Positions 1,741 through 35,802 of a DNA stretch of 64,000 nt are shown one piece after another. Each line of letters starts with the position of its first letter. The first letter of the stretch is position 1. The notes under the pieces are model-generated. The model saw only the letters and a list, made by a program, of their open reading frames with translations, was not told the DNA's origin and made no database searches. The DNA lies in the NCBI GenBank assembly GCA_964349875.1, contig CAYGIG010000001.1, positions 52-64,051 on the forward strand, in the 5' to 3' direction. This DNA is from an uncultured Gammaproteobacteria bacterium. GTDB lineage: Bacteria; Patescibacteriota; Microgenomatia; CAYQLK01. Made by a program: the position numbers and the translations under genes.

Positions 1741-2154
1741 TTACACCGCAGCCTTAGCTTTTTCAAACATTTCAGCTATCTCATCCACTGCCTTAACTAA
1801 TCTTTGTGCTGCATCCAAATGGGCATGTTGCTTGTTTTCTGAAATTAACTTAGCCGTATTCCAAACTTTATTATGCAAATCCGGAAACTTCTCTAAATGT
1901 TCCGGTTTGAAAAAATCAGTCCACAAGGTCAATATTTCTTGTTTGCAGATTCTGGCATGTTCTTCCTTCGTAGTAACCATTCTCACAAAACTATTCATAT
2001 CAGACGGTGCCATTTCTTTTGGCAAGGCTAAGATTTTCTCAACCATCTTTAATACCGTTGCAGCTGCTATTTGAGCCGGTTTTGGATCATAAATACCGCA
2101 TGGCACATCGCAATGTGCGAACACTTTGTTGGAGGGTTTAAATATATTAATCAT
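1741..2154 (-). CDS. sodN: nickel-containing superoxide dismutase precursor (NiSOD)
   Basis: The mature N-terminus HCDVPCGIYDP follows a 13-aa leader MINIFKPSNKVFA. This is the canonical Ni-hook motif (His1, Cys2, Cys6). Length of 137 aa and the helical remainder fit NiSOD. Confidence 0.8.
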   Translation of the reverse strand: MINIFKPSNKVFAHCDVPCGIYDPKPAQIAAATVLKMVEKILALPKEMAPSDMNSFVRMVTTKEEHARICKQEILTLWTDFFKPEHLEKFPDLHNKVWNTAKLISENKQHAHLDAAQRLVKAVDEIAEMFEKAKAAV

Positions 2155-15584: not shown

Positions 15585-15815
15585 GCACCACTTGAGCAAA
15601 GAGATCGCCCAAACGGTCGGAGGCAAACGCTTTGCAGTGCTTCTCGCACTGATTGCTGTCTTCGCTGTTTTGGCAAAGTTCCTAGGGTAGGCCAAAAACC
15701 AACAAAGGGGCACCGTTTGAGTAATAAAGAGATCGCCCAAACGGTCGGAGGCAAACGCTTTGCATGGCTCGTCGCCATCATCGCCGCTTTCGCTGTTTTC
15801 GCAACCATCGGCAGC
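15585..15815 (+). repeat. tandem duplication (2 x ~115 bp, ~80% identical) covering the start of the GC-rich ORF
   Basis: The first copy encodes a truncated N-terminus (SKEIAQTVGGKRFAVLLALIAVFAVLAKFLG then a stop). The second copy is the start of ORF 15717..16709 (MSNKEIAQTVGGKRFAWLVAIIAAFAVFATIG). Confidence 0.7.
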
Positions 15816-16709
15816 CAGTGGCGTCACGCCTCGGCTTCCGAACTCAGCCCCGCCGACAACTCGCAGACAGTGCTTATGCCGTCTACGGCTAGCACCTCTG
15901 CCGATAGCGTGAACCTTCCCGACATCCGCGGCAGCACCGATGGTGCAATCGCCACAGTCGCTAACTTCACGGAAGTCGTCGGCTCCACTGTCTCGACCGT
16001 CAACGTCCCGCTCATAGCCGAACCTGGCTTCTGGGCATTCGTTGCCGCAACCGTCGCTTTCGTCGTACTCCTACGAGTCGTCACACTTGGCACTCTCGTG
16101 GAATGCGCCGACCCTCGTTACGTCCGTCGTCAAGACCTCGGCATGTACGGTCACCGCGCGCGGAAGGGCAACAGCCCGCCCAACTCGCTCGCAGCCCGCT
16201 CGACTTGGCTTCGTACTACTGACACTTCGGGGACAAGCAAACGATCCGGGCTTAAACGTGCATCGCACGTGACTATTACCCGCGACACGCTGCTGTCCGC
16301 GAACACCACGACGACCTCGCGCAAGACGCATGCTGTCACCAGCGCGATCTTCGGTCGACTACACGCCGCCTTCATCACATTCGTCGGCGCCGTCAGAACC
16401 TCGATTTCGTATTTCCGAAGGGCCATCGCCTCAGCCGGAACGGCCATGATTTCGTCGCTCAAGCGCTTTGGAGCAGGATCCGCGTATCCGCTCATCGCAC
16501 ACAAGTCATTCGTCCGCGTCGCCAGCGCCAGTCGCACATCCGCCTTCGCGACTCACAGGCAACTCAGTAAGTCCGAATTCCTCCACCATATCAGCTTCGA
16601 CAGCAACGCCGGCAAACGCGCCGACAGCCAAAACAGTGGCTGGCTCTCGAACCTGATGAACTCGCTGTACGGAAACGGCCCTTCGCCGGCTCTCGTGCTC
16701 CGACTCTAA
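15717..16709 (+). CDS. hypothetical membrane-anchored Ser/Thr/Ala/Arg-rich protein inside a high-GC segment (TTG start)
   Basis: Longest ORF in a ~1.3 kb segment of about 60% GC. All six frames are open there. One N-terminal TM helix, then low-complexity sequence. Coding status uncertain. Confidence 0.3.
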   Translation: MSNKEIAQTVGGKRFAWLVAIIAAFAVFATIGSQWRHASASELSPADNSQTVLMPSTASTSADSVNLPDIRGSTDGAIATVANFTEVVGSTVSTVNVPLIAEPGFWAFVAATVAFVVLLRVVTLGTLVECADPRYVRRQDLGMYGHRARKGNSPPNSLAARSTWLRTTDTSGTSKRSGLKRASHVTITRDTLLSANTTTTSRKTHAVTSAIFGRLHAAFITFVGAVRTSISYFRRAIASAGTAMISSLKRFGAGSAYPLIAHKSFVRVASASRTSAFATHRQLSKSEFLHHISFDSNAGKRADSQNSGWLSNLMNSLYGNGPSPALVLRL

Positions 16710-18630: not shown

Positions 18631-19203
18631 TCATATCTCAAATTCTTTTACTTCTAAGTGATTCCATGGAAACTTGCGTAACAGATCAATCACTATTCGC
18701 GGATTACTTCTCCATTCCAACATTCCCGTTAATGAGCATGCTAAATGTCTAAAAAAAGTTCCATGCGCTACCACAGCCACAGTCTTGCACCCCTTCTCTT
18801 TATCTTCGAGTAGCAGCTTGTGAAACAAAGCAGCCCTGTCTGCAATCTCTGCGTACGACTCTCCATCCTCAGGCTTCCAGTCCGGATCATATTTATCATT
18901 TTTATGATCTTCCCAAAACTGCACCAGCTCTGCCTTACTAGCGCCGATAAACCGCGATGGTCTGACGTACTCGTTTATTAGCGGTGTATAAACAACGTCT
19001 GCTCTATCTGGAAAAATTAATCCTGCCGTCTGTTTGGCCCTTATTAGCTCTGAACAATATATATTGTCAGGGTTGACTACCTCCAACTGCGCCCGCTTGA
19101 TACCCGCAATTGTTTCGTCGTCATTGACAATTGGATCCACAGTCCCTTGGACGACCTCCTCAGTCGTTTCTATCTTGGCGTGCCTTATTAAGTATATTTT
19201 CAT
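18631..19203 (-). CDS. histidine phosphatase (phosphoglycerate mutase-like) family protein
   Basis: N-terminal IYLIRHAK catalytic His motif. C-terminal AVVAHGTFFRHL second His. Confidence 0.65.
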   Translation of the reverse strand: MKIYLIRHAKIETTEEVVQGTVDPIVNDDETIAGIKRAQLEVVNPDNIYCSELIRAKQTAGLIFPDRADVVYTPLINEYVRPSRFIGASKAELVQFWEDHKNDKYDPDWKPEDGESYAEIADRAALFHKLLLEDKEKGCKTVAVVAHGTFFRHLACSLTGMLEWRSNPRIVIDLLRKFPWNHLEVKEFEI

Positions 19204-20183
19204 CCGAGTATTTGTTTGGCTTCATACATAGCTGTCAAAAGATGTTGCACACCATACTCTTCACACACAGTCGTAAAGGACTTGTCTCGCAAAAAAGCAA
19301 TACTCCGACCGATATTGTTCGCCACATATGCCGCAGTTCTGAGTTTTAAGGTCGGGTCATCTTCCTCATGTTCTTTGAGATAGTCCAAAACGCGCTGCTT
19401 GATTGCCTCAGTCGTTTCGGTCTGCCTAGGTAAAGCAGATGCAAATTCGGCCTTCTCATCCTCCACATTAGGTGAACCAATCACACCTGGAAAATCTGCG
19501 TTAAACAAATACGTCCTCGCAAAGATATTTCCCAGCACCCAAGCTAAATCATAATAACCGGCAAAACGAGCATCAATTACTTTGTAAGCGCCACTTTCCG
19601 GATCTTTGGGGACCAAAATATTGCCGAGATTTTCATCACCATGAGACAGCACCAATTGAGGAGGCTCGATTGCAAAACCTCTTTCCTGAATGTCAAAAAA
19701 CTCGTCAAGCGATCCGATATCGACCCCTCCCGTGACAATCGGTATAGCGCCAGAGACACCCAGTCTCTCTTCCGCCGCTTGCCTGAACTTTGGCATAACT
19801 CGCAAAGCGATTTCGGCATAATTTCTAATTAGTTTTTCACTCTCGAACGGTATGGCAGTCTTTTCCCACATCGAAACCAGGTCGCCAAAAAAAGCATCAA
19901 AACTCTCGACTGCTTTTTTGTCATTTTGGTTCGTCAGATCATTGACAGTCTCACTCGGACAGTACCGTACGATCAAACTCGGTCTACCGTCGATATCTAT
20001 CCGCTTGGTCGGCAACACCGACAGATAGTCTTTAATCTTTTGCCATCCGGCATACTCCTCATCGACAAACTGCGTTTTTATGACACTATTGACATGCTCT
20101 CTACCTGTATAGACGATCTCCCCCGTTGTCCCTGCTTGTTTAGATTCAAATGATCTCATCACCCTACCTATTTGCTCCGTCAT
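19200..20183 (-). CDS. phosphotransferase (APH/choline-kinase-like) family protein
   Basis: Brenner motif LSHGDENLGNILV. DARFAGYYD metal-binding segment. Confidence 0.65.
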   Translation of the reverse strand: MTEQIGRVMRSFESKQAGTTGEIVYTGREHVNSVIKTQFVDEEYAGWQKIKDYLSVLPTKRIDIDGRPSLIVRYCPSETVNDLTNQNDKKAVESFDAFFGDLVSMWEKTAIPFESEKLIRNYAEIALRVMPKFRQAAEERLGVSGAIPIVTGGVDIGSLDEFFDIQERGFAIEPPQLVLSHGDENLGNILVPKDPESGAYKVIDARFAGYYDLAWVLGNIFARTYLFNADFPGVIGSPNVEDEKAEFASALPRQTETTEAIKQRVLDYLKEHEEDDPTLKLRTAAYVANNIGRSIAFLRDKSFTTVCEEYGVQHLLTAMYEAKQILG

Positions 20184-20249
20184 ATTTACCTAATATTCTA
20201 CCACTTGTGCGAGTCTAATCTGGATCACAAGTTCTAGAACGTATTACCC

Positions 20250-20280
20250 CACCCCCCAACTAATAAAATATGGGGGGGTG
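20250..20280. promoter_or_regulatory. G/C-tract inverted repeat CACCCCCCA-N12-TGGGGGGGTG in the divergent promoter region
   Basis: 9-bp perfect arms. No flanking T-run on either strand, so unlikely to be a terminator. Resembles the G/C-tract CsoR-type operator of M. tuberculosis. Confidence 0.35.
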
Positions 20281-20335
20281 AAAACTCGATTAGAAATACC
20301 TCGACAGTATTGTCTCCTTCCAGCTCATCGCCTCG

Positions 20336-20364
20336 TTGACAATACCCCCTAGGGGGTATATATT
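20336..20364 (+). promoter_or_regulatory. sigma-70-like promoter (TTGACA-17-TATATT) with an embedded perfect 18-bp palindrome ATACCCCCTAGGGGGTAT, a CsoR-type operator
   Basis: -35 at 20336-20341, palindrome at 20342-20359 filling the spacer, -10 at 20359-20364, csoR ATG at 20373 (near-leaderless). The palindrome matches the B. subtilis copZA operator consensus TACCC-N-GGGGGTA. Confidence 0.7.
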
Positions 20365-20372
20365 ATTTTCTT

Positions 20373-20648
20373 ATGAAACACATGGAGGACAAAAACAAGC
20401 TCAAAATTATCCAGCGTCTTAAGATTCTCGAAGGCCAAGTCCGAGGACTTCAGGAAATGATCGACAAAGATACTTATTGTATTGATGTCATTACCCAAAC
20501 ATCGGCAGTCAAACAAGGTCTGTCAAATGTCGAAGACTTACTACTCAGCAATCACTTAGACAGCTGCATCATCGACCAACTCAAATCCGGACAAACAGAC
20601 AAAGCAAAAGAAGAAATCCTTAAAGTCTACAAGCTTAAGAGAAAATAA
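20373..20648 (+). CDS. csoR: CsoR/RcnR family copper-sensing transcriptional repressor
   Basis: 91 aa. Cys in [10 protein letters not shown] plus His/Cys in LSNHLDSCI give the C-H-C Cu(I) ligand set. Confidence 0.8.
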
Positions 20649-20649
20649 T

Positions 20650-22965
20650 ATGCACAGCGAAACTTATCAAGTAAAAGGAATGCACTGCGCTTCGTGCTCG
20701 TCGATGATTGAAAAGACTTTTAAAAAAGTTGAAGGGGTCGAGTCCGCCGAAGTTAATTACGGCACTGAAAAAGCCAAAGTCACTTTTGATCCAAAAAAAA
20801 CAAACCCTGAAGCTCTTTCCAAACACATCGAACCGCTTGGCTATTCACTAATTATGCCTACCGTCGACACACCAAATTCCCCTAGTGCCAGCGAAATGGG
20901 CATGTCCGCTAGCGATCACGCTGAACATTTAGGTCTCAATCAATCAAAAAAAGAAAAACTCATTGAAATTGCCGACATGCGATCAAAAGTAATTTCGGCC
21001 ATCCCTCTTGTGATTATCGGCATTTTTATCATGGGCTGGGATATTCTATCTGAGTTCAAAGTCGTTGCTCCCCCATCACAAAACCTTGAGGAATTTTTCC
21101 ATCATCTCCTGCCGATTATGGCTACATACATGTTATTTGTGGTCGGCAAACCATATCTTTTAGGTTTCTACCGTTTTCTCCGCTACGGCAAAGCCAATAT
21201 GGACACACTTATCGGCATCGGCACTTCGGTCGCATTTCTCTATAGTTTTATAATCACTGCTTTTGAAGAACCCCTTCGGCAGTATGTCAATGTTACTAAC
21301 ACCTATTACGACGTCACTATCGTAGTCATCACATTCATCGCACTCGGTAAATATCTTGAAGCCAGAGCAAAAGTTAAAACCGGAGATGCCATCGAAAAAC
21401 TACTTAACCTCCAGGCAAAAACCGCAATCGTTATTCGTAATAAAAAAGAGTTGGAAATTTCCATCAATCTAGTCATTCACGGCGACCGCATTGTGGTAAA
21501 ACCCGGAGCTCGGATTCCTGTCGATGGAACTGTAGCCGACGGGTCTTCTTTTGTCGACGAATCAATGGTTACCGGAGAGCCAATGCCAATCGAAAAAAAT
21601 GCCGGCGATACCGTCGTAGCGGGAACAATCAATACCACTGGCTCTTTTACCTTTACAGCAACCAAGGTCGGCTCAGAAACATTACTTGCTCAAATTATCA
21701 AGATGGTCGAAAACGCGCAAGGAAGCCGCGCGCCCATTCAAGCTTTGGCTGATAAAATTTCTGCCGTGTTCGTGCCAATCGTCTTAATACTAGCCTTTGT
21801 CACTCTCGGAGCTTGGCTTCTCATAGGCACGCCGCTACTCGGATTCTCCACCGCATTATCATTCGGACTTACATCATTTGTAGGCATCTTGGTTATTGCC
21901 TGCCCATGTGCTCTCGGCTTAGCAACACCTACAGCGATTATCGTCGGAGTGGGCAAGGGAGCCAAAGAGGGCATCTTAATAAAAGACGCCGCAACTCTGG
22001 AAAAACTTCACAAGGTTGATACCGTTGTCGTAGATAAAACCGGAACCATAACCCGCGGTAAACCGGAGCTGACAAGTATTCAAAACCTCTCAAAATTAAC
22101 CGACGAAAAAATTATCTCCATACTAGCTTCACTTGAAAACAAGTCAGAACATCCAATTGCTTACGCTATTACTCAGTACGCAAAAGCGAAAAATATTCGC
22201 TCCGTTACGATTTCGGGTTTTGAAATCATCAAAGGCAAAGGGCTTAAGGCTGTTATTGGAAAAATCGAATATTTTGCCGGCAACACCAAACTTGTTTCCG
22301 ATCTCAAACTTTCCTTTGACGTAAAGAATATTGAGGCAGAAACTTTACGAGGCAAAACCCCTGTCATTCTTGCCACAAAAAATGAAGTTCTAGGTATTGT
22401 TATGGTAGCTGATGCTATAAAACCCGAAGCCATTGAAGCAGTAAAAAATCTCCATAAGCTTGGAATCAAAACAGTTATGCTAACAGGTGATAACAAGAAC
22501 ACAGCTCTTGCCATTGCCAAAGAAGTCGGTATTGACGATGTAGTAGCCGAAGTACTTCCGGAAGACAAACTAAAGAAGATAAAAGAGCTGCAAAGTCAGG
22601 GTCATATCGTGGCAATGGCTGGCGACGGCATTAACGATGCCCCAGCTCTAGCTCAAGCCGATGTTGGTATCGCCATGGGAACCGGCACGGACGTGGCCAT
22701 CGAAACAGCCGGCATCACGCTCCTAAACGGAGATATTTCAAAACTTGTAAAAGCTATCCGACTATCTAAGTTCACTATGAACGGCATCAAACAAAACCTC
22801 TTTTGGGCGTTTATTTACAACATCGTAGGCATACCTCTTGCTGCAGGAATGTTTTATCCCATTTTTGGTTGGCTTTTAAATCCGGTTTTTGCTGGATTCG
22901 CAATGGCATCTTCCAGCGTCTCAGTCGTCGGTAATTCATTACGCCTCAAAACAAAGAAAATTTAA
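20650..22965 (+). CDS. copA: copper-translocating P1B-type ATPase
   Basis: N-terminal HMA domain [14 protein letters not shown] motif [18 protein letters not shown] phosphorylation site, GDGINDAP, eight TM helices. Confidence 0.95.
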
Positions 22966-22969
22966 ACCT

Positions 22970-23989
22970 ATGAAAACCCACACATTCCACGTTAATGGTA
23001 TGCACTGCAATGCTTGCGTAGTACTAACAGAAAGTGAGCTAAACGAAGTATCGGAAGTCTCCCATGTAAAAGCATCACTCAAACATCTTAATGTCGAAGT
23101 GACTGGAGACTTTGGCGACAAAAAACCAGAACACATCGCCCGCGACCTAAGCGTTGTTCTAGAATCACACGGCTATACTCTCTCCCTCGAAAAACAAAAA
23201 CATTCAGCCAAATGGTCTGACTTCCGCATTTCCCTTCCTGTTGCAGGAGCATTTATTGCACTATTTATCATCTTGCAAAAACTCGGCATCGTGAATTTAA
23301 TCACAGCATCGGATGTCAGCTATAGTACAGCGTTTATCATCGGCCTTATCGCCTCCGTTTCTACATGCATGGCAGTCGTCGGTGGCTTAGTGTTGTCCAT
23401 GTCTGCCAATTTTGCCTTAACAGGTGACAAGGTACGTCCGCAAATTTTATTTCATATCGGCCGGCTCATATCGTTTTTTATTCTTGGCGGTGCAATCGGC
23501 GCCCTTGGTTCGGCATTCCAACTTGGCACGACAGGCACAATTGTTCTTAGTTTTATTGTTGCGATAGTTCTTCTTATTCTTGGTATCAACCTTCTCGATG
23601 TATTTCCTTGGGCAAAAAAACTTCAGCCAACCATCCCAAGCTTAGTTGGCAAACATGTTTATGGGCTCAAAAATGTCAATCACATCCTTACCCCTCTCTT
23701 AATCGGCATTGCAACATTCTTTTTGCCCTGTGGATTTACTCAATCCATGCAGATTTATACCCTAACTACCGGGAGTTTTTTAACCGGAGCATTAATTATG
23801 TTTACTTTTGCACTCGGCACGCTTCCGGTACTTGCCCTCTTAAGTTTCAGCTCACTAAGTATTCACAAAAAAGCACAATCCGGGGTATTTTTTAAGACCG
23901 CCGGCCTTGTTGTAATATTTTTCGGAGTCTTTAATCTAATTAATGCACTAGTCGCTATCGGTATTATTCCGCCGCTTTTCAGTTTTTAG
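22970..23989 (+). CDS. HMA (CxxC) domain fused to a DsbD_2/CcdA-like 6-TM permease; putative metal/thiol transporter
   Basis: Start moved to the ATG at 22970, because the track ORF overlaps the copA end. VNGMHCNACVV HMA motif. Membrane domain with Cys in two half-repeats (VSTCMAVVGG, FFLPCGFTQSM). Confidence 0.5.
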   Translation: MKTHTFHVNGMHCNACVVLTESELNEVSEVSHVKASLKHLNVEVTGDFGDKKPEHIARDLSVVLESHGYTLSLEKQKHSAKWSDFRISLPVAGAFIALFIILQKLGIVNLITASDVSYSTAFIIGLIASVSTCMAVVGGLVLSMSANFALTGDKVRPQILFHIGRLISFFILGGAIGALGSAFQLGTTGTIVLSFIVAIVLLILGINLLDVFPWAKKLQPTIPSLVGKHVYGLKNVNHILTPLLIGIATFFLPCGFTQSMQIYTLTTGSFLTGALIMFTFALGTLPVLALLSFSSLSIHKKAQSGVFFKTAGLVVIFFGVFNLINALVAIGIIPPLFSF

Positions 23990-24017
23990 ACGAAGTTAAT
24001 AAAACATAAATGAATTT

Positions 24018-24398
24018 ATGAAAATACCAGGCAAAACAATTCTTATAGCCACAACAATTATTATTGGACTAGCGGCACTCTCTGGGTGTAGCAGCACTTC
24101 AGAAGCTGTAAACAATGTAAGCATGGCTGACGGTAAACAAATCATCAAAATCCAAGCTAAGGGTGGTTATTCCCCCAAAGTGACAACCGCCAAAGCTGAT
24201 ACGCCTACAACTATTGAGGTATCTACACAAAGTACTTTTGATTGTTCGTCAGCATTAGTAATTCCGAGCTTGAATTATCGTAAAAATCTTCCACCATCCG
24301 GAACTACAGATATCGAAGTTCCTGCACAAAAAGCCGGCACAAAATTGCAAGGGTTGTGCGCCATGGGAATGTACAGTTTTGTTGTGAATTTTAATTGA
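24018..24398 (+). CDS. lipoprotein with cupredoxin-like beta-sandwich; candidate Cu(I)-binding Cys/Met site
   Basis: Lipobox LSGCSS. C-terminal QGLCAMGMYSFVVNFN resembles the cupredoxin C-terminal ligand loop, with Met where His is usual. Sits in the cop operon. Confidence 0.4.
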   Translation: MKIPGKTILIATTIIIGLAALSGCSSTSEAVNNVSMADGKQIIKIQAKGGYSPKVTTAKADTPTTIEVSTQSTFDCSSALVIPSLNYRKNLPPSGTTDIEVPAQKAGTKLQGLCAMGMYSFVVNFN

Positions 24399-24431
24399 TT
24401 TTAACGTAACGAGTACGAGTAAAATATTAAT

Positions 24432-25175
24432 ATGATATTTCATTTTGATAAAAACTTTGACGAAAAAGATCGCGATCTGTTTAAAAAAGCGCAAGAAGAT
24501 GACTTAAAAAAGATTTGTTCATATTTACAAACAGACGAAAAGTTATTAGAAAAAGTTAGATTCGAGGTTTTTAGTACCCGAGAGGGCAAACAAAATGCCG
24601 ACCCCAACCACAGCATCAGCCGAGCAAGTGCTAGATTCGAAGAAATGGCTATTTATCGATTCTGGCTCCCCCCAGAAGACCCCCACTTCCCCCATGAAAC
24701 TACCCATCTTGTAGCCCACACTTGGACGGACCCTTATTTACTTAAAGACGAATTGGATACTTGGGACGGTAAAAAAATCACCAAAACAATTGAAATGGTT
24801 TCAACCTCTTTTTTTCAAGAAGGCTTGGCGATTGCAGTTGATGATATTGTGTTTGGTAGAAAACTCCCAGAAGAGGGCGAAACAAAATTTATTGATGACT
24901 GGTGCAGAGACCAAATTGATAAAATACCTCAACTCAGTCAATGCATCAACATGGAAGGCTTTGACTCTTTCGAAAACAAGCTTGTCGTTCCTTTTACAGC
25001 CTCGTTTTCAAAATATCTCCTAGAGTCTTTTGGGGTTGAAATTTATAAAAAAATGTATATATCAATCAGTGAAACAACCTCAATTAAAGAAAATATTAAC
25101 GAAATAGAAAAGATTTATAATATGTCTGAAAACTCCCTACTACAAAATTGGAAATCTAGCCTATTATCAAAATAA
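24432..25175 (+). CDS. hypothetical protein with HExxH motif (possible zinc metallopeptidase)
   Basis: PHETTHLVAH contains HETTH. Confidence 0.3.
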   Translation: MIFHFDKNFDEKDRDLFKKAQEDDLKKICSYLQTDEKLLEKVRFEVFSTREGKQNADPNHSISRASARFEEMAIYRFWLPPEDPHFPHETTHLVAHTWTDPYLLKDELDTWDGKKITKTIEMVSTSFFQEGLAIAVDDIVFGRKLPEEGETKFIDDWCRDQIDKIPQLSQCINMEGFDSFENKLVVPFTASFSKYLLESFGVEIYKKMYISISETTSIKENINEIEKIYNMSENSLLQNWKSSLLSK

Positions 25176-25185
25176 TTATTAAGCA

Positions 25186-25956
25186 ATGCTAAAAGCCATA
25201 ATTGTTTCCCGCAAAGGCTTGCCCACCACATCAAACCTATATAAAAAAATAAAATCCAAACTTGAAATAGTTGAGAGCGGTCAAAAAGCCGACTTTATTC
25301 TTGTCTTGGGTGGCGATGGCGCAATGCTTAACGCTATTAACAAATATTACAAATTAAAAATTCCTTTTGCAGGTTTCAACTTCGGACATTTAGGCTTTTT
25401 ATTAAACGAAGCCAAGACTGGTGTTTTAGAAGAAATTCTTGCGGGAAAATTCGACACTGTCGAATCCAATCTGCTGGAAGCCAAACTTTATTCATTCCAT
25501 CAAAAATTAAAAACGGTCCTGGCTTTTAACGACTTTTATTTCGAGCGCAAAACACCCCAAACCGCCAGAATAGAAATATCAGTAAACGGCACCGTAAGAT
25601 TCGAAACCTTAGTCTGCGACGGCGTGATTGTTTCCTCGCCTGCCGGCTCCACCGCCTACAACGCATCGGCAGGAGGAAAAATACTCCCTATCGACAGCAG
25701 GCACATGGTTTTAACAGGCATTTGTCCGGCACTATTCCACAACTGGCGCAGCGCCCAACTCTCTCACAATTCAACAATTTGTCTAAATATTATCGACACC
25801 GAACTCCGTCCAGTGGTTTTTATGGCCGATGGTAGGGAAATAGCAGGAGTAACCAAAGCAGAAATAAAATACTCCAAACAGAAGGTCAAAATCCTCTTTG
25901 CTCGCTCCCAAGACTTTCGCGAAAAATTCCTCCGCCTCCAATTCTCTACTCTGTAA
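25186..25956 (+). CDS. nadK: NAD+ kinase
   Basis: GGDGAML motif (LVLGGDGAMLNAI). DGVIVSSPAGSTAYNASAGG NAD-binding segment. Confidence 0.9.
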   Translation: MLKAIIVSRKGLPTTSNLYKKIKSKLEIVESGQKADFILVLGGDGAMLNAINKYYKLKIPFAGFNFGHLGFLLNEAKTGVLEEILAGKFDTVESNLLEAKLYSFHQKLKTVLAFNDFYFERKTPQTARIEISVNGTVRFETLVCDGVIVSSPAGSTAYNASAGGKILPIDSRHMVLTGICPALFHNWRSAQLSHNSTICLNIIDTELRPVVFMADGREIAGVTKAEIKYSKQKVKILFARSQDFREKFLRLQFSTL

Positions 25957-26084
25957 CTAACCTAACAAGTAGAAAACGGGGACCCCACAAAATCTTTGAT
26001 TTTGAAGGGGAGAAGGAGGAATGGCGGAAACCAATTTAACTTTACGTCAGAAAAGTCTCTTGGTTGTAGTCCATTCCAACGCGG

Positions 26085-26172
26085 CGGAGGGGGAGAGATT
26101 CGAACTCTCGGAAGGAAAAAATCCTTCAGCAGTTTTCGAAACTGCCGCACTAGTCCACTATGCGACCCCTCC
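26085..26172 (-). tRNA. tRNA-Ser (anticodon CGA), long variable arm, 3' CCG instead of CCA
   Basis: GGAGGGGTCGCATAGTGGACTAGTGCGGCAGTTTCGAAAACTGCTGAAGGATTTTTTCCTTCCGAGAGTTCGAATCTCTCCCCCTCCG. Anticodon loop TTCGAAA. Confidence 0.8.
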
Positions 26173-27421: not shown

Positions 27422-28066
27422 TTGAAGCCGAATAAAAATTTCGCTGATATAATTGATTTTATGCCCACAAAATCAAAGTCAAAAAAAGGCCAAAGAGTCA
27501 TAGAAAAAGCCTTTAGCATCCCTGAATTCCCCAACCCAAACAGAAATCTGACAAAAGAAGAAATATTGGCACTCAAATCTGACGTTATCAGAAGCAAGAA
27601 CCTTTTATCATGGAAAGCTTACTCCCGTGTTTATAAAAAACGCACCAAGATGTACTACATCAATATCGCAATAATCGTTTTTTTGTTGGGACTGATCGCA
27701 ATTACCGTTAATGAGCCCATCGTTGCCCTGGTTATTTTGTCACTGGGGTTTGTTGCGTATGTGCTCGCTTATATTGAACCGGAAATTGTTGAAAACAAAA
27801 TAACTAGACTTGGAGTCGTTACAAATGGAAATGCCTTTTTATGGACAGAATTAGGAGATTTCTGGTTTTCTAGAAGAAACAACCAAACAATTCTTAACAT
27901 CACTCAAAATAGGCTTAGACCCGCGATAGTAATGATAATTGAAGACAGTAAGAAAGATAAAATAATTGACATACTTTCAGAACAGCTGAATTTTCGCCGC
28001 GACTACAAAGGCTTTGTCGTGGATAAGATGGCAGACAAGCTTGTTGAAAAAGTACCTTTAGAGTAA
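27422..28066 (+). CDS. hypothetical membrane protein
   Basis: Basic N-terminus and two TM helices. Followed by two hairpins (28090-28160). Confidence 0.4.
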   Translation: MKPNKNFADIIDFMPTKSKSKKGQRVIEKAFSIPEFPNPNRNLTKEEILALKSDVIRSKNLLSWKAYSRVYKKRTKMYYINIAIIVFLLGLIAITVNEPIVALVILSLGFVAYVLAYIEPEIVENKITRLGVVTNGNAFLWTELGDFWFSRRNNQTILNITQNRLRPAIVMIIEDSKKDKIIDILSEQLNFRRDYKGFVVDKMADKLVEKVPLE

Positions 28067-35235: not shown

Positions 35236-35802
35236 TTACTTTATTTCTCCCGCCGGCTCAGCTTTTTCAAGCCTGGCTTCTTTTTGAATAGCAAGTGACA
35301 CCTTAGCTGGATGGGGCACGGAATTAAAATCAAATTCCCGTTGTTCAGCGGCGGTCTGAATATGCACATGTCCGTAATCAAAAAACAGCCTCGCAATTCC
35401 CCCAACAGCCTGCGAAACATCTTCAATATTATCAAGCCCCGCGTAAGATACTTTTTTTGACAATAAGTTGTGAAAATCCACATCGATTATCCGCTCGTTA
35501 GTCAAAATATACGTATTATTAAACCAGCTAACCAATCTTTCCAATAACACTCCAAACGTTATCAAATACCACAAAATAGTTGCAATAATCCAATATTCAG
35601 CAGAAATTACACTGGTAATATCAATTTCATACATAGAAACTGCCCCAAAGAAAACAAATGGCACCAGAACCATTAAGCCCACAGTCACAAACCAGTTGAG
35701 CAAAACCACGAAATGCTGCCTTAGAAAAAGTATTACTTTTTCCCCCTCCTCTTGGCCTTCAAACGTTATATTTTCTGGGTTTTCAAAAAACGATTTCAAC
35801 AT
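35236..35802 (-). CDS. bacterial PH-domain (bPH_2/YdbS-like) membrane protein
   Basis: Two N-terminal TM helices, then ILTNERIIDVDFHNLLSKKVSYAGLDNIEDV, typical of DUF304/bPH_2. Confidence 0.55.
   Translation of the reverse strand: MLKSFFENPENITFEGQEEGEKVILFLRQHFVVLLNWFVTVGLMVLVPFVFFGAVSMYEIDITSVISAEYWIIATILWYLITFGVLLERLVSWFNNTYILTNERIIDVDFHNLLSKKVSYAGLDNIEDVSQAVGGIARLFFDYGHVHIQTAAEQREFDFNSVPHPAKVSLAIQKEARLEKAEPAGEIK

Follow-up and report, generated by a model that had tools for sequence, protein, structure and literature searches.

The copper locus and its neighbours

The window, which is the whole stretch of 64,000 nt of DNA analysed here, carries a csoR gene that is followed on the plus strand by genes for a copper ATPase, an HMA-DsbD_2 membrane protein and a cupredoxin-like lipoprotein, while a kinase-like gene and a phosphatase gene lie divergently on the minus strand. 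The 189-bp region between csoR and the kinase-like gene holds two G/C-tract inverted repeats; the one within the csoR promoter is referred to as element 1 and the one further upstream as element 2. The features of the locus, given by coordinates in the window, are listed below.

18631-19203, minus strand: His_Phos_1 phosphatase gene, after the kinase-like gene
19200-20183, minus strand: kinase-like gene (327 aa), HGDxxxxN motif visible
20195-20203, minus strand: putative extended -10, TGGTAGAAT, of the kinase-like/His_Phos_1 operon
20247-20280, no strand assigned: element 2, inverted repeat of G/C tracts, CCCCACCCCCC ... GGGGGGGTG, around an AT-rich centre of 15 nt
20318-20372, plus strand: csoR control-DNA block common to sister lineages with different upstream contexts (local and multiple alignments)
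20336-20341, plus strand: -35 hexamer TTGACA of the csoR promoter (promoter scan)
20342-20359, no strand assigned: element 1, predicted type-2 CsoR operator, perfect palindrome ATACCCCCTAGGGGGTAT with the core TAC (20343-45)-N10-GTA (20356-58)
20359-20364, plus strand: -10 hexamer TATATT of the csoR promoter, with an overlapping alternative TATTAT at 20361-20366
20373-20648, plus strand: csoR (91 aa), PF02583 (Trns_repr_metal), E=8.9e-23, residues 9-85
20650-22965, plus strand: copA, P1B-type copper ATPase (E1-E2_ATPase and Hydrolase domains, HMA domain at the N-terminus)
22970-23989, plus strand: HMA-DsbD_2 membrane protein (Pfam), start called likewise in the related loci L081-L087
24018-24398, plus strand: cupredoxin-like lipoprotein with an LSGC lipobox (Cupredoxin_1, E=7e-11), conserved in L081-L087

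The best solved relatives of the window CsoR are S. lividans CsoR (4ADZ, E=9e-16) and M. tuberculosis CsoR (2HH7), both of which are bona fide CsoRs, and the latter could be aligned to it residue for residue with identical numbering. It has been reported that Cu(I) is bound in CsoR by Cys36, His61 and Cys65 in the M. tuberculosis numbering (PMC10601412). The x-C-H-C ligand fingerprint (C36/H61/C65) is present in the window protein, and the Tyr35/Glu81 pair is kept as well. These two residues we take to be the second-shell allosteric pair, with the same role as in M. tuberculosis CsoR. Among 25 homologues, M1, Y35, C36, H61, C65 and E81 are invariant, and M4 is not conserved. In the RLXR DNA-contact motif the second Arg is changed to Ile or Leu in these CsoRs; as the window protein has RLKI instead of the S. 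lividans RLXR, its DNA contacts may differ in detail. M4 is the start used by some gene callers, whereas the conserved start is M1. An exact look-up found no record of the 91-aa protein, but an 88-aa call starting at M4 is on record. Patescibacteria have a great many homologues that are about 80% identical to this CsoR. The third codon of csoR (20379-20381; MKH...) encodes His in this clade, and this position is off by one from the 'W' ligand position of RcnR/InrS. As Tyr occupies it in most relatives, His3 is not a conserved fourth ligand, and it is probably no metal ligand. Neither a second CsoR paralogue nor an RcnR-like paralogue was found in the window.

The four genes of the csoR operon are separated by 1, 4 and 28 nt, and neither a convincing internal promoter nor a convincing plus-strand terminator was found within csoR-copA-HMA/DsbD_2-cupredoxin. 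An autoregulated operon of csoR, copA, the HMA permease and the lipoprotein had been predicted by the first-pass annotation, and this prediction fits the domain content, the ligand residues, the tight gene spacing and the promoter layout found in 59 of 61 loci (described below). After the cupredoxin gene comes an ORF of 247 aa (24432-25175, plus strand) with an HExxH-like motif (HETTH) and without a significant Pfam match; it is missing from the sister locus L086, where a NAD kinase gene directly follows the cupredoxin gene.

On the divergent side, the same annotation had named a phosphotransferase and a phosphatase. The phosphatase was identified as His_Phos_1, but the 327-aa kinase-like protein showed no significant Pfam match (Choline_kinase, E=0.12) besides its visible HGDxxxxN motif, and the protein collection held only six homologues of it, for which five loci could be retrieved. 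The putative extended -10 of this operon, TGGTAGAAT, is overlapped by a candidate operator, the inverted repeat TTCTACCACTTGTG / CACAAGTTCTAGAA (20196-20209 / 20226-20239; arms complementary at 12 of 14 positions, gap of 16 nt). In the window as a whole, the GC skew is negative in all 2-kb bins from 1 to 64000 (C exceeds G on the plus strand). The segment from 14 to 18 kb is richer in GC (45-49%) and contains a 330-aa Ala/Ser/Thr-rich ORF (15717-16709) and overlapping ORFs on both strands.

Element 1 and the csoR promoter

The csoR promoter agrees with the consensus at 11 of 12 positions, has a spacer of 17 bp and was the best match of the promoter scan within 20300-26100; TTGACA-TATATT is the only strong sigma-70-type promoter of the region. 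The spacer is occupied by the 18-mer ATACCCCCTAGGGGGTAT, within which the type-2 operator dyad is arranged as TAC(20343)-CCCCTAGGGG-GTA(20358), with N10 between its halves. It had been stated that a perfect 18-bp palindrome exactly fills the 17-bp spacer; the palindrome is perfect and both hexamers are in place, but the fit is not exact, since the final T of the palindrome doubles as the first base of the -10. Element 1 overlaps the csoR-copA promoter, lying within its spacer, as type-2 CsoR operators do. The 18-mer occurs as a single copy in the 64-kb window even when up to 3 mismatches are allowed, and 0.01 copies would be expected by chance.

The conservation of this layout was examined in related loci. 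Eighty loci with CsoR relatives were fetched, and 60 of the Patescibacteria type were analysed together with the window (61 loci). A strict box, TACCC-N4-6-GGGTA, stands just upstream of csoR in 59 of the 61 loci and was found 0 times elsewhere in 275 kb of flanking sequence; the two loci without it have degenerate versions instead. The dyad is spaced as TAC-N9 in 43 loci and as TAC-N10 in 18. Of the 61 loci, 50 have a -35 with at least five of six matches at the equivalent position, and in 60 loci the GTA of the box is adjoined or overlapped by a TAnnnT hexamer. The spacer between the -35 and the -10 stays within 16-18 bp in 54 of 60 loci, although the box slides a few bp inside it. A CopA homologue is encoded directly after csoR in 38 loci; in 10 others it lies within 1-2 kb. 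In a few loci a second conventional CsoR box is present: for example, L005 has ATACCCCCGTAGGGTATAC about 95 nt upstream of csoR, and in L041 a box-like ATACCCTAATCATGGGTGT adjoins the -35. Dual operators thus occur in Patescibacteria, as normal boxes and not as split tracts.

The reading of the 18-mer as a CsoR operator, which had been proposed under the label "B. subtilis-type" (for which the class description of type 2 in PMC3902906 is the basis), is supported by the TAC/GTA dyad, by the ligand residues of the adjacent CsoR and by the same layout in 59 of 61 related loci. A search for further copies of the 18-mer, which had been proposed as a check, agrees with it: no second copy exists in the 64-kb window, and the strict box is absent from the 275 kb of flanks. 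Element 1 is predicted to be an ordinary, well-conserved CsoR binding site in the promoter of a copper-export operon. It is scarcely credible that it is instead the hairpin of an intrinsic terminator. A terminator scan did flag 20342-20359 together with the T-rich tail ATATTATTTT. However, no plus-strand gene upstream needs termination, the hairpin reaches only -11.3 kcal/mol (z=-1.4), and in 60 related loci the box lies between the -35 and the -10 and is followed by TAnnnT, about 6 nt and the ATG, with no T-run. The terminator reading of element 1 was dropped on this promoter context.

The promoter predicted around element 1 leaves little room for a leader. The csoR ATG at 20373 is separated from the -10 by 8 nt (a distance of about 9 nt had been given before, and the near-leaderless transcript deduced from it fits the geometry), and the first in-frame ATG lies 6-9 nt past the -10 in 51 of 60 loci. 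From such a distance, transcription would be expected to begin at the start codon or right beside it. No Shine-Dalgarno (SD) motif precedes csoR, and its transcript is probably leaderless or nearly so; the two -10 registers (TATATT or TATTAT) make a leader of 0-3 nt or of zero length possible.

The genome is poor in SD motifs more generally, with GGAG, GAGG or AGGA at positions -18 to -6 ahead of only 6 of 58 crude ORF calls, in line with a report that a subgroup of Parcubacteria has lost the anti-SD sequence (PMC9297842). Many first genes have a TAnnnT ending 6-11 nt ahead of the ATG, for example 1741-2154 (minus strand), 27461-28066 (plus), 35236-35802 (minus) and the kinase-like gene at 19200-20183 (minus); in the homologous kinase-like loci L091 and L093, TATAAT lies 7-9 nt ahead of the ATG. 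The scarcity of SD motifs and the TAnnnT hexamers near the ATG of many first genes suggest that leaderless initiation may be general in this genome.

Element 2, the upstream G/C-tract repeat

The first-pass annotation had also described a second G/C-tract inverted repeat with longer arms and an N12 gap, conspicuous in an AT-rich genome. The repeat is present, but its perfect arms measure 8 bp (CACCCCCC, 20250-57, and GGGGGGTG, 20273-80) and stand 15 nt apart; the longer strings read before, CACCCCCCA (20250-58) and TGGGGGGGTG (20271-80), do occur there and are not exact complements (C6 versus G7). The genome, at about 40% GC, is only moderately AT-rich. G7 (20272-20278) is the sole run of at least six G in the 64 kb, and C4 followed by G4 within 30 nt occurs at four places in the window, two of them in the csoR/kinase-like intergenic region. 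Perfect stems containing 7 or more G:C pairs were found in 2 of 421 equal-sized windows, compared with 22 of 421 for any 8-bp stem. It is by composition, not by length, that element 2 exceeds chance.

The predicted fold of element 2 has a free energy of -16.8 kcal/mol on the plus strand and -18.3 kcal/mol on the minus strand, with shuffle z-scores of -1.8 to -2.0. No T-run follows it on either strand and the terminator scan gave no call (15-nt loop); without a T-run, an intrinsic terminator was discarded as a reading of element 2. A permissive Rfam search of 20150-20400 returned matches at chance level only, and no credible small ORF was found in the csoR/kinase-like intergenic region. The arms were also compared with known operator types. 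Element 2 lacks the TAC-N9/10-GTA dyad, its sole TAC (20245-47) being 30 nt off from the GTG at the right end (20278-80). With respect to type-1 (RcnR/NreA-like) operators, a trivial TATTA/TAATA repeat of 5 bp flanks the C-tract and the G-tract has no flanking dyad; neither an AGTA nor a GGATA-type dyad was found in element 2. M. tuberculosis-type (GTA...TAC) and RcnR-type readings were rejected, as the arms are similar but the dyads and the spacing do not fit.

Element 2 is unchanged in the same-strain contigs L081-L085, except for G8 in place of G7 (20272-20278) in L082, a difference that reflects either genuine variation of the homopolymer or a mistake in the assembly. In the sister lineages L086/87 and L088/89 the CsoRs are 97-98% identical and the promoter/operator is identical, but the upstream neighbours are different. 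Homology to the window starts at 20318 for L088 and at 20323 for L086 in local alignments, with which the multiple alignment agrees, and element 2 is therefore missing from both sister lineages. No split G/C-tract repeat was found in the 60 other csoR loci, which show ordinary terminator hairpins and occasional second boxes (L005, L041), and none upstream of the kinase-like homologues in five loci (58-63% identity). A metagenome-wide scan for CCCCACCCCCC-N10-20-GGGGGGGTG returned more than 120 matches, mostly poly-C/G artefacts at contig ends and unrelated GC-rich hairpins; none was associated with CsoR, CopA or kinase homologues or with similarity to the csoR/kinase-like spacer, so this search yielded no copper-linked relatives of element 2. 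As a separate observation, a long perfect palindrome, AAATCCCCCCACCCCCC(C)-TTTnnAAA-GGGGGGGTGGGGGGATTT, recurs in the unrelated metagenome contigs L098, L141, L157 and L206 (48-65% GC).

The earlier description of the upstream repeat as a second operator-like element is not supported, since it has no TAC/GTA dyad, lies outside the conserved block and has no counterpart in 60 csoR or five kinase-like loci. Element 2 is confined to this lineage and does not form part of the conserved copper switch; that it is a CsoR operator is improbable. It is most likely specific to the lineage and belongs to the side of the divergent kinase-like operon, where it could be a structural or relic hairpin or the site of another factor.

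Among the more specific readings, a non-regulatory relic or by-product (for instance a one-time hairpin, or homopolymers prone to slippage) next to the junction of a rearrangement is plausible, and it is put forward tentatively. Element 2 lies about 40 bp from the end of the sister-lineage homology, it is found in one strain group only and with G7 or G8 among near-identical contigs, and it fits no definition of an operator or terminator. However, a C6/G7 inverted repeat is very rare in the genome, which argues for an origin or a constraint beyond drift, and the difference between G7 and G8 may stem from the assembly. It is possible but doubtful that element 2 serves the divergent kinase-like/His_Phos_1 operon in cis, either as the site of another regulator about 60-90 bp upstream of that operon's promoter or as an RNA hairpin in a longer 5' leader. 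The absence of the repeat upstream of the five available homologues (58-63% identity), the failure to predict a minus-strand promoter upstream of element 2, the missing Rfam match and the modest z-scores of the hairpin all weigh against such a role, whereas the stability of the minus-strand hairpin (-18.3 kcal/mol) and the position of element 2 on that flank of the synteny break which goes along with this operon are in its favour. The inverted repeat at 20196-20209 / 20226-20239 over the putative extended -10 further suggests that more regulatory DNA is present there.

It is unlikely that element 2 is a second, non-canonical CsoR site, consisting of widely spaced half-sites (TACCCC ... GGGGGTG) or of A-form-prone tracts that are read by shape; such a site would extend the repression or link the divergent kinase/phosphatase operon with copper. 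The evidence for a link between element 2 and CsoR is circumstantial. G/C tracts determine the shape of CsoR operators (PMC3902906), some CsoR/RcnR promoters have two operators (PMC12724321), and in L005 another complete box is found about 65 nt upstream. It is also suggestive that two of the four C4..G4 pairs of the window cluster in the 189-bp spacer with the promoter box close by, that the left arm holds CCCACCCCC, as does the M. tuberculosis cso operator (PMC10601412), and that half-sites are resembled by TACCCC on the left and by GGGGGTG, as in the L017 box, on the right. However, the TAC-N9/10-GTA dyad is lacking, and half-sites alone are not bound by S. lividans CsoR (PMC3902906). Moreover, element 2 is missing in sister lineages that have an identical promoter/operator and a CsoR 97-98% identical, no split tracts occur in the 60 other loci, and the metagenome scan gave no copper-linked copies. 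It is very unlikely that element 2 represents a new class of long-spaced CsoR-family site, with its arms separated by about two more helical turns than those of a normal box, or a switch based on G7/G8 slippage; a long-spaced site, if true, could put the divergent kinase-like/phosphatase operon under copper status or loop to the promoter box.

The proposed copper switch and known CsoR systems

With element 2 set aside as a probable lineage-specific element, 20336-20372 is very probably a compact copper-responsive promoter/operator to which element 2 does not belong. From its anatomy we infer the following sequence of events. A sigma-70-type promoter (TTGACA-17 bp-TATATT) would drive csoR-copA-HMA/DsbD_2-cupredoxin, with transcription starting at the csoR ATG or within a few nt of it and giving a leaderless mRNA. 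The type-2 operator (TAC-N10-GTA flanking C5/G5 tracts) is predicted to sit in the 17-bp spacer, where apo-CsoR, as two tetramers by analogy, would occupy the box and block RNA polymerase. Binding of Cu(I) to C36/H61/C65 would then free the repressor from the DNA, and csoR itself and the efflux and handling genes would be induced.

This gives a confident and transferable annotation of a canonical CsoR copper switch in uncultured, genome-reduced Patescibacteria (candidate phyla radiation). The predicted operator and leaderless layout is ordinary for the family, and its phylum-wide occurrence in Patescibacteria is newly documented here; knowledge of how CsoR works is unchanged by these results. 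A promoter/operator of about 40-55 bp that is conserved across the phylum and has an apparently leaderless mRNA offers a compact candidate for a copper-inducible part. The csoR promoter also provides a concrete case for SD-independent initiation in a lineage reported to be without the anti-SD sequence.

The proposed switch was compared with three groups of known systems. In M. tuberculosis, as predicted for the window, csoR is the first gene and is autoregulated. In B. subtilis, csoR lies outside the copZA operon. The B. subtilis CsoR-copZA and M. tuberculosis cso systems share with the window the repressor family and the C36/H61/C65 ligands (PMC10601412), and in all three a G/C-tract pseudopalindrome overlaps the promoter of the efflux operon (copA/ctpV). 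However, in M. tuberculosis the operator is longer, with its dyad inverted to GTA...TAC in place of TAC/GTA, and the window operon has no gene for a CopZ chaperone and encodes the HMA-DsbD_2 protein and the cupredoxin lipoprotein instead.

In Mesorhizobium, the NreA operator lies in the spacer between the -35 and the -10, and the mRNA was found to be leaderless by 5'-RACE (PMC12724321). Like csoR in the window, nreAXY has an autoregulated promoter that is compact (about 39 bp) and whose spacer is filled by a dyad operator, with the repressor gene first (PMC12724321). NreA is, however, a Ni sensor with a type-1 operator (single G7 tract, TATCC...GGATA), whereas the predicted window operator is of type 2 and the ligand set and the neighbouring genes point to Cu(I).

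The CsoR operators of S. lividans are TACCCCCTAGGGGTA, and their TAC/GTA dyad is needed for binding (PMC3902906); two tetramers bind, a half-site alone is not bound, and the G/C tracts are a determinant of operator shape (PMC3902906). The type-2 operators of this species (copZA1, copZA2 and csoR-4375) are one G apart from the window box, and the TAC/GTA dyad flanks C and G tracts in both. The spacing is N10 in the window and N9 in S. lividans copZA1, and both spacings are found among Patescibacteria. The two CsoRs share a basic C-terminus and a Gln six residues past the first Cys (Q42 in the window, Q81 in S. lividans), but the window protein is without the long N-terminal extension and has Ile or Leu for the second Arg of RLXR. 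The hosts differ as well, as the window CsoR belongs to a Patescibacterium with SD-poor genes. Since element 1 closely resembles the S. lividans operators and the design of the NreA promoter, it is a predicted member of a well-known kind of operator.
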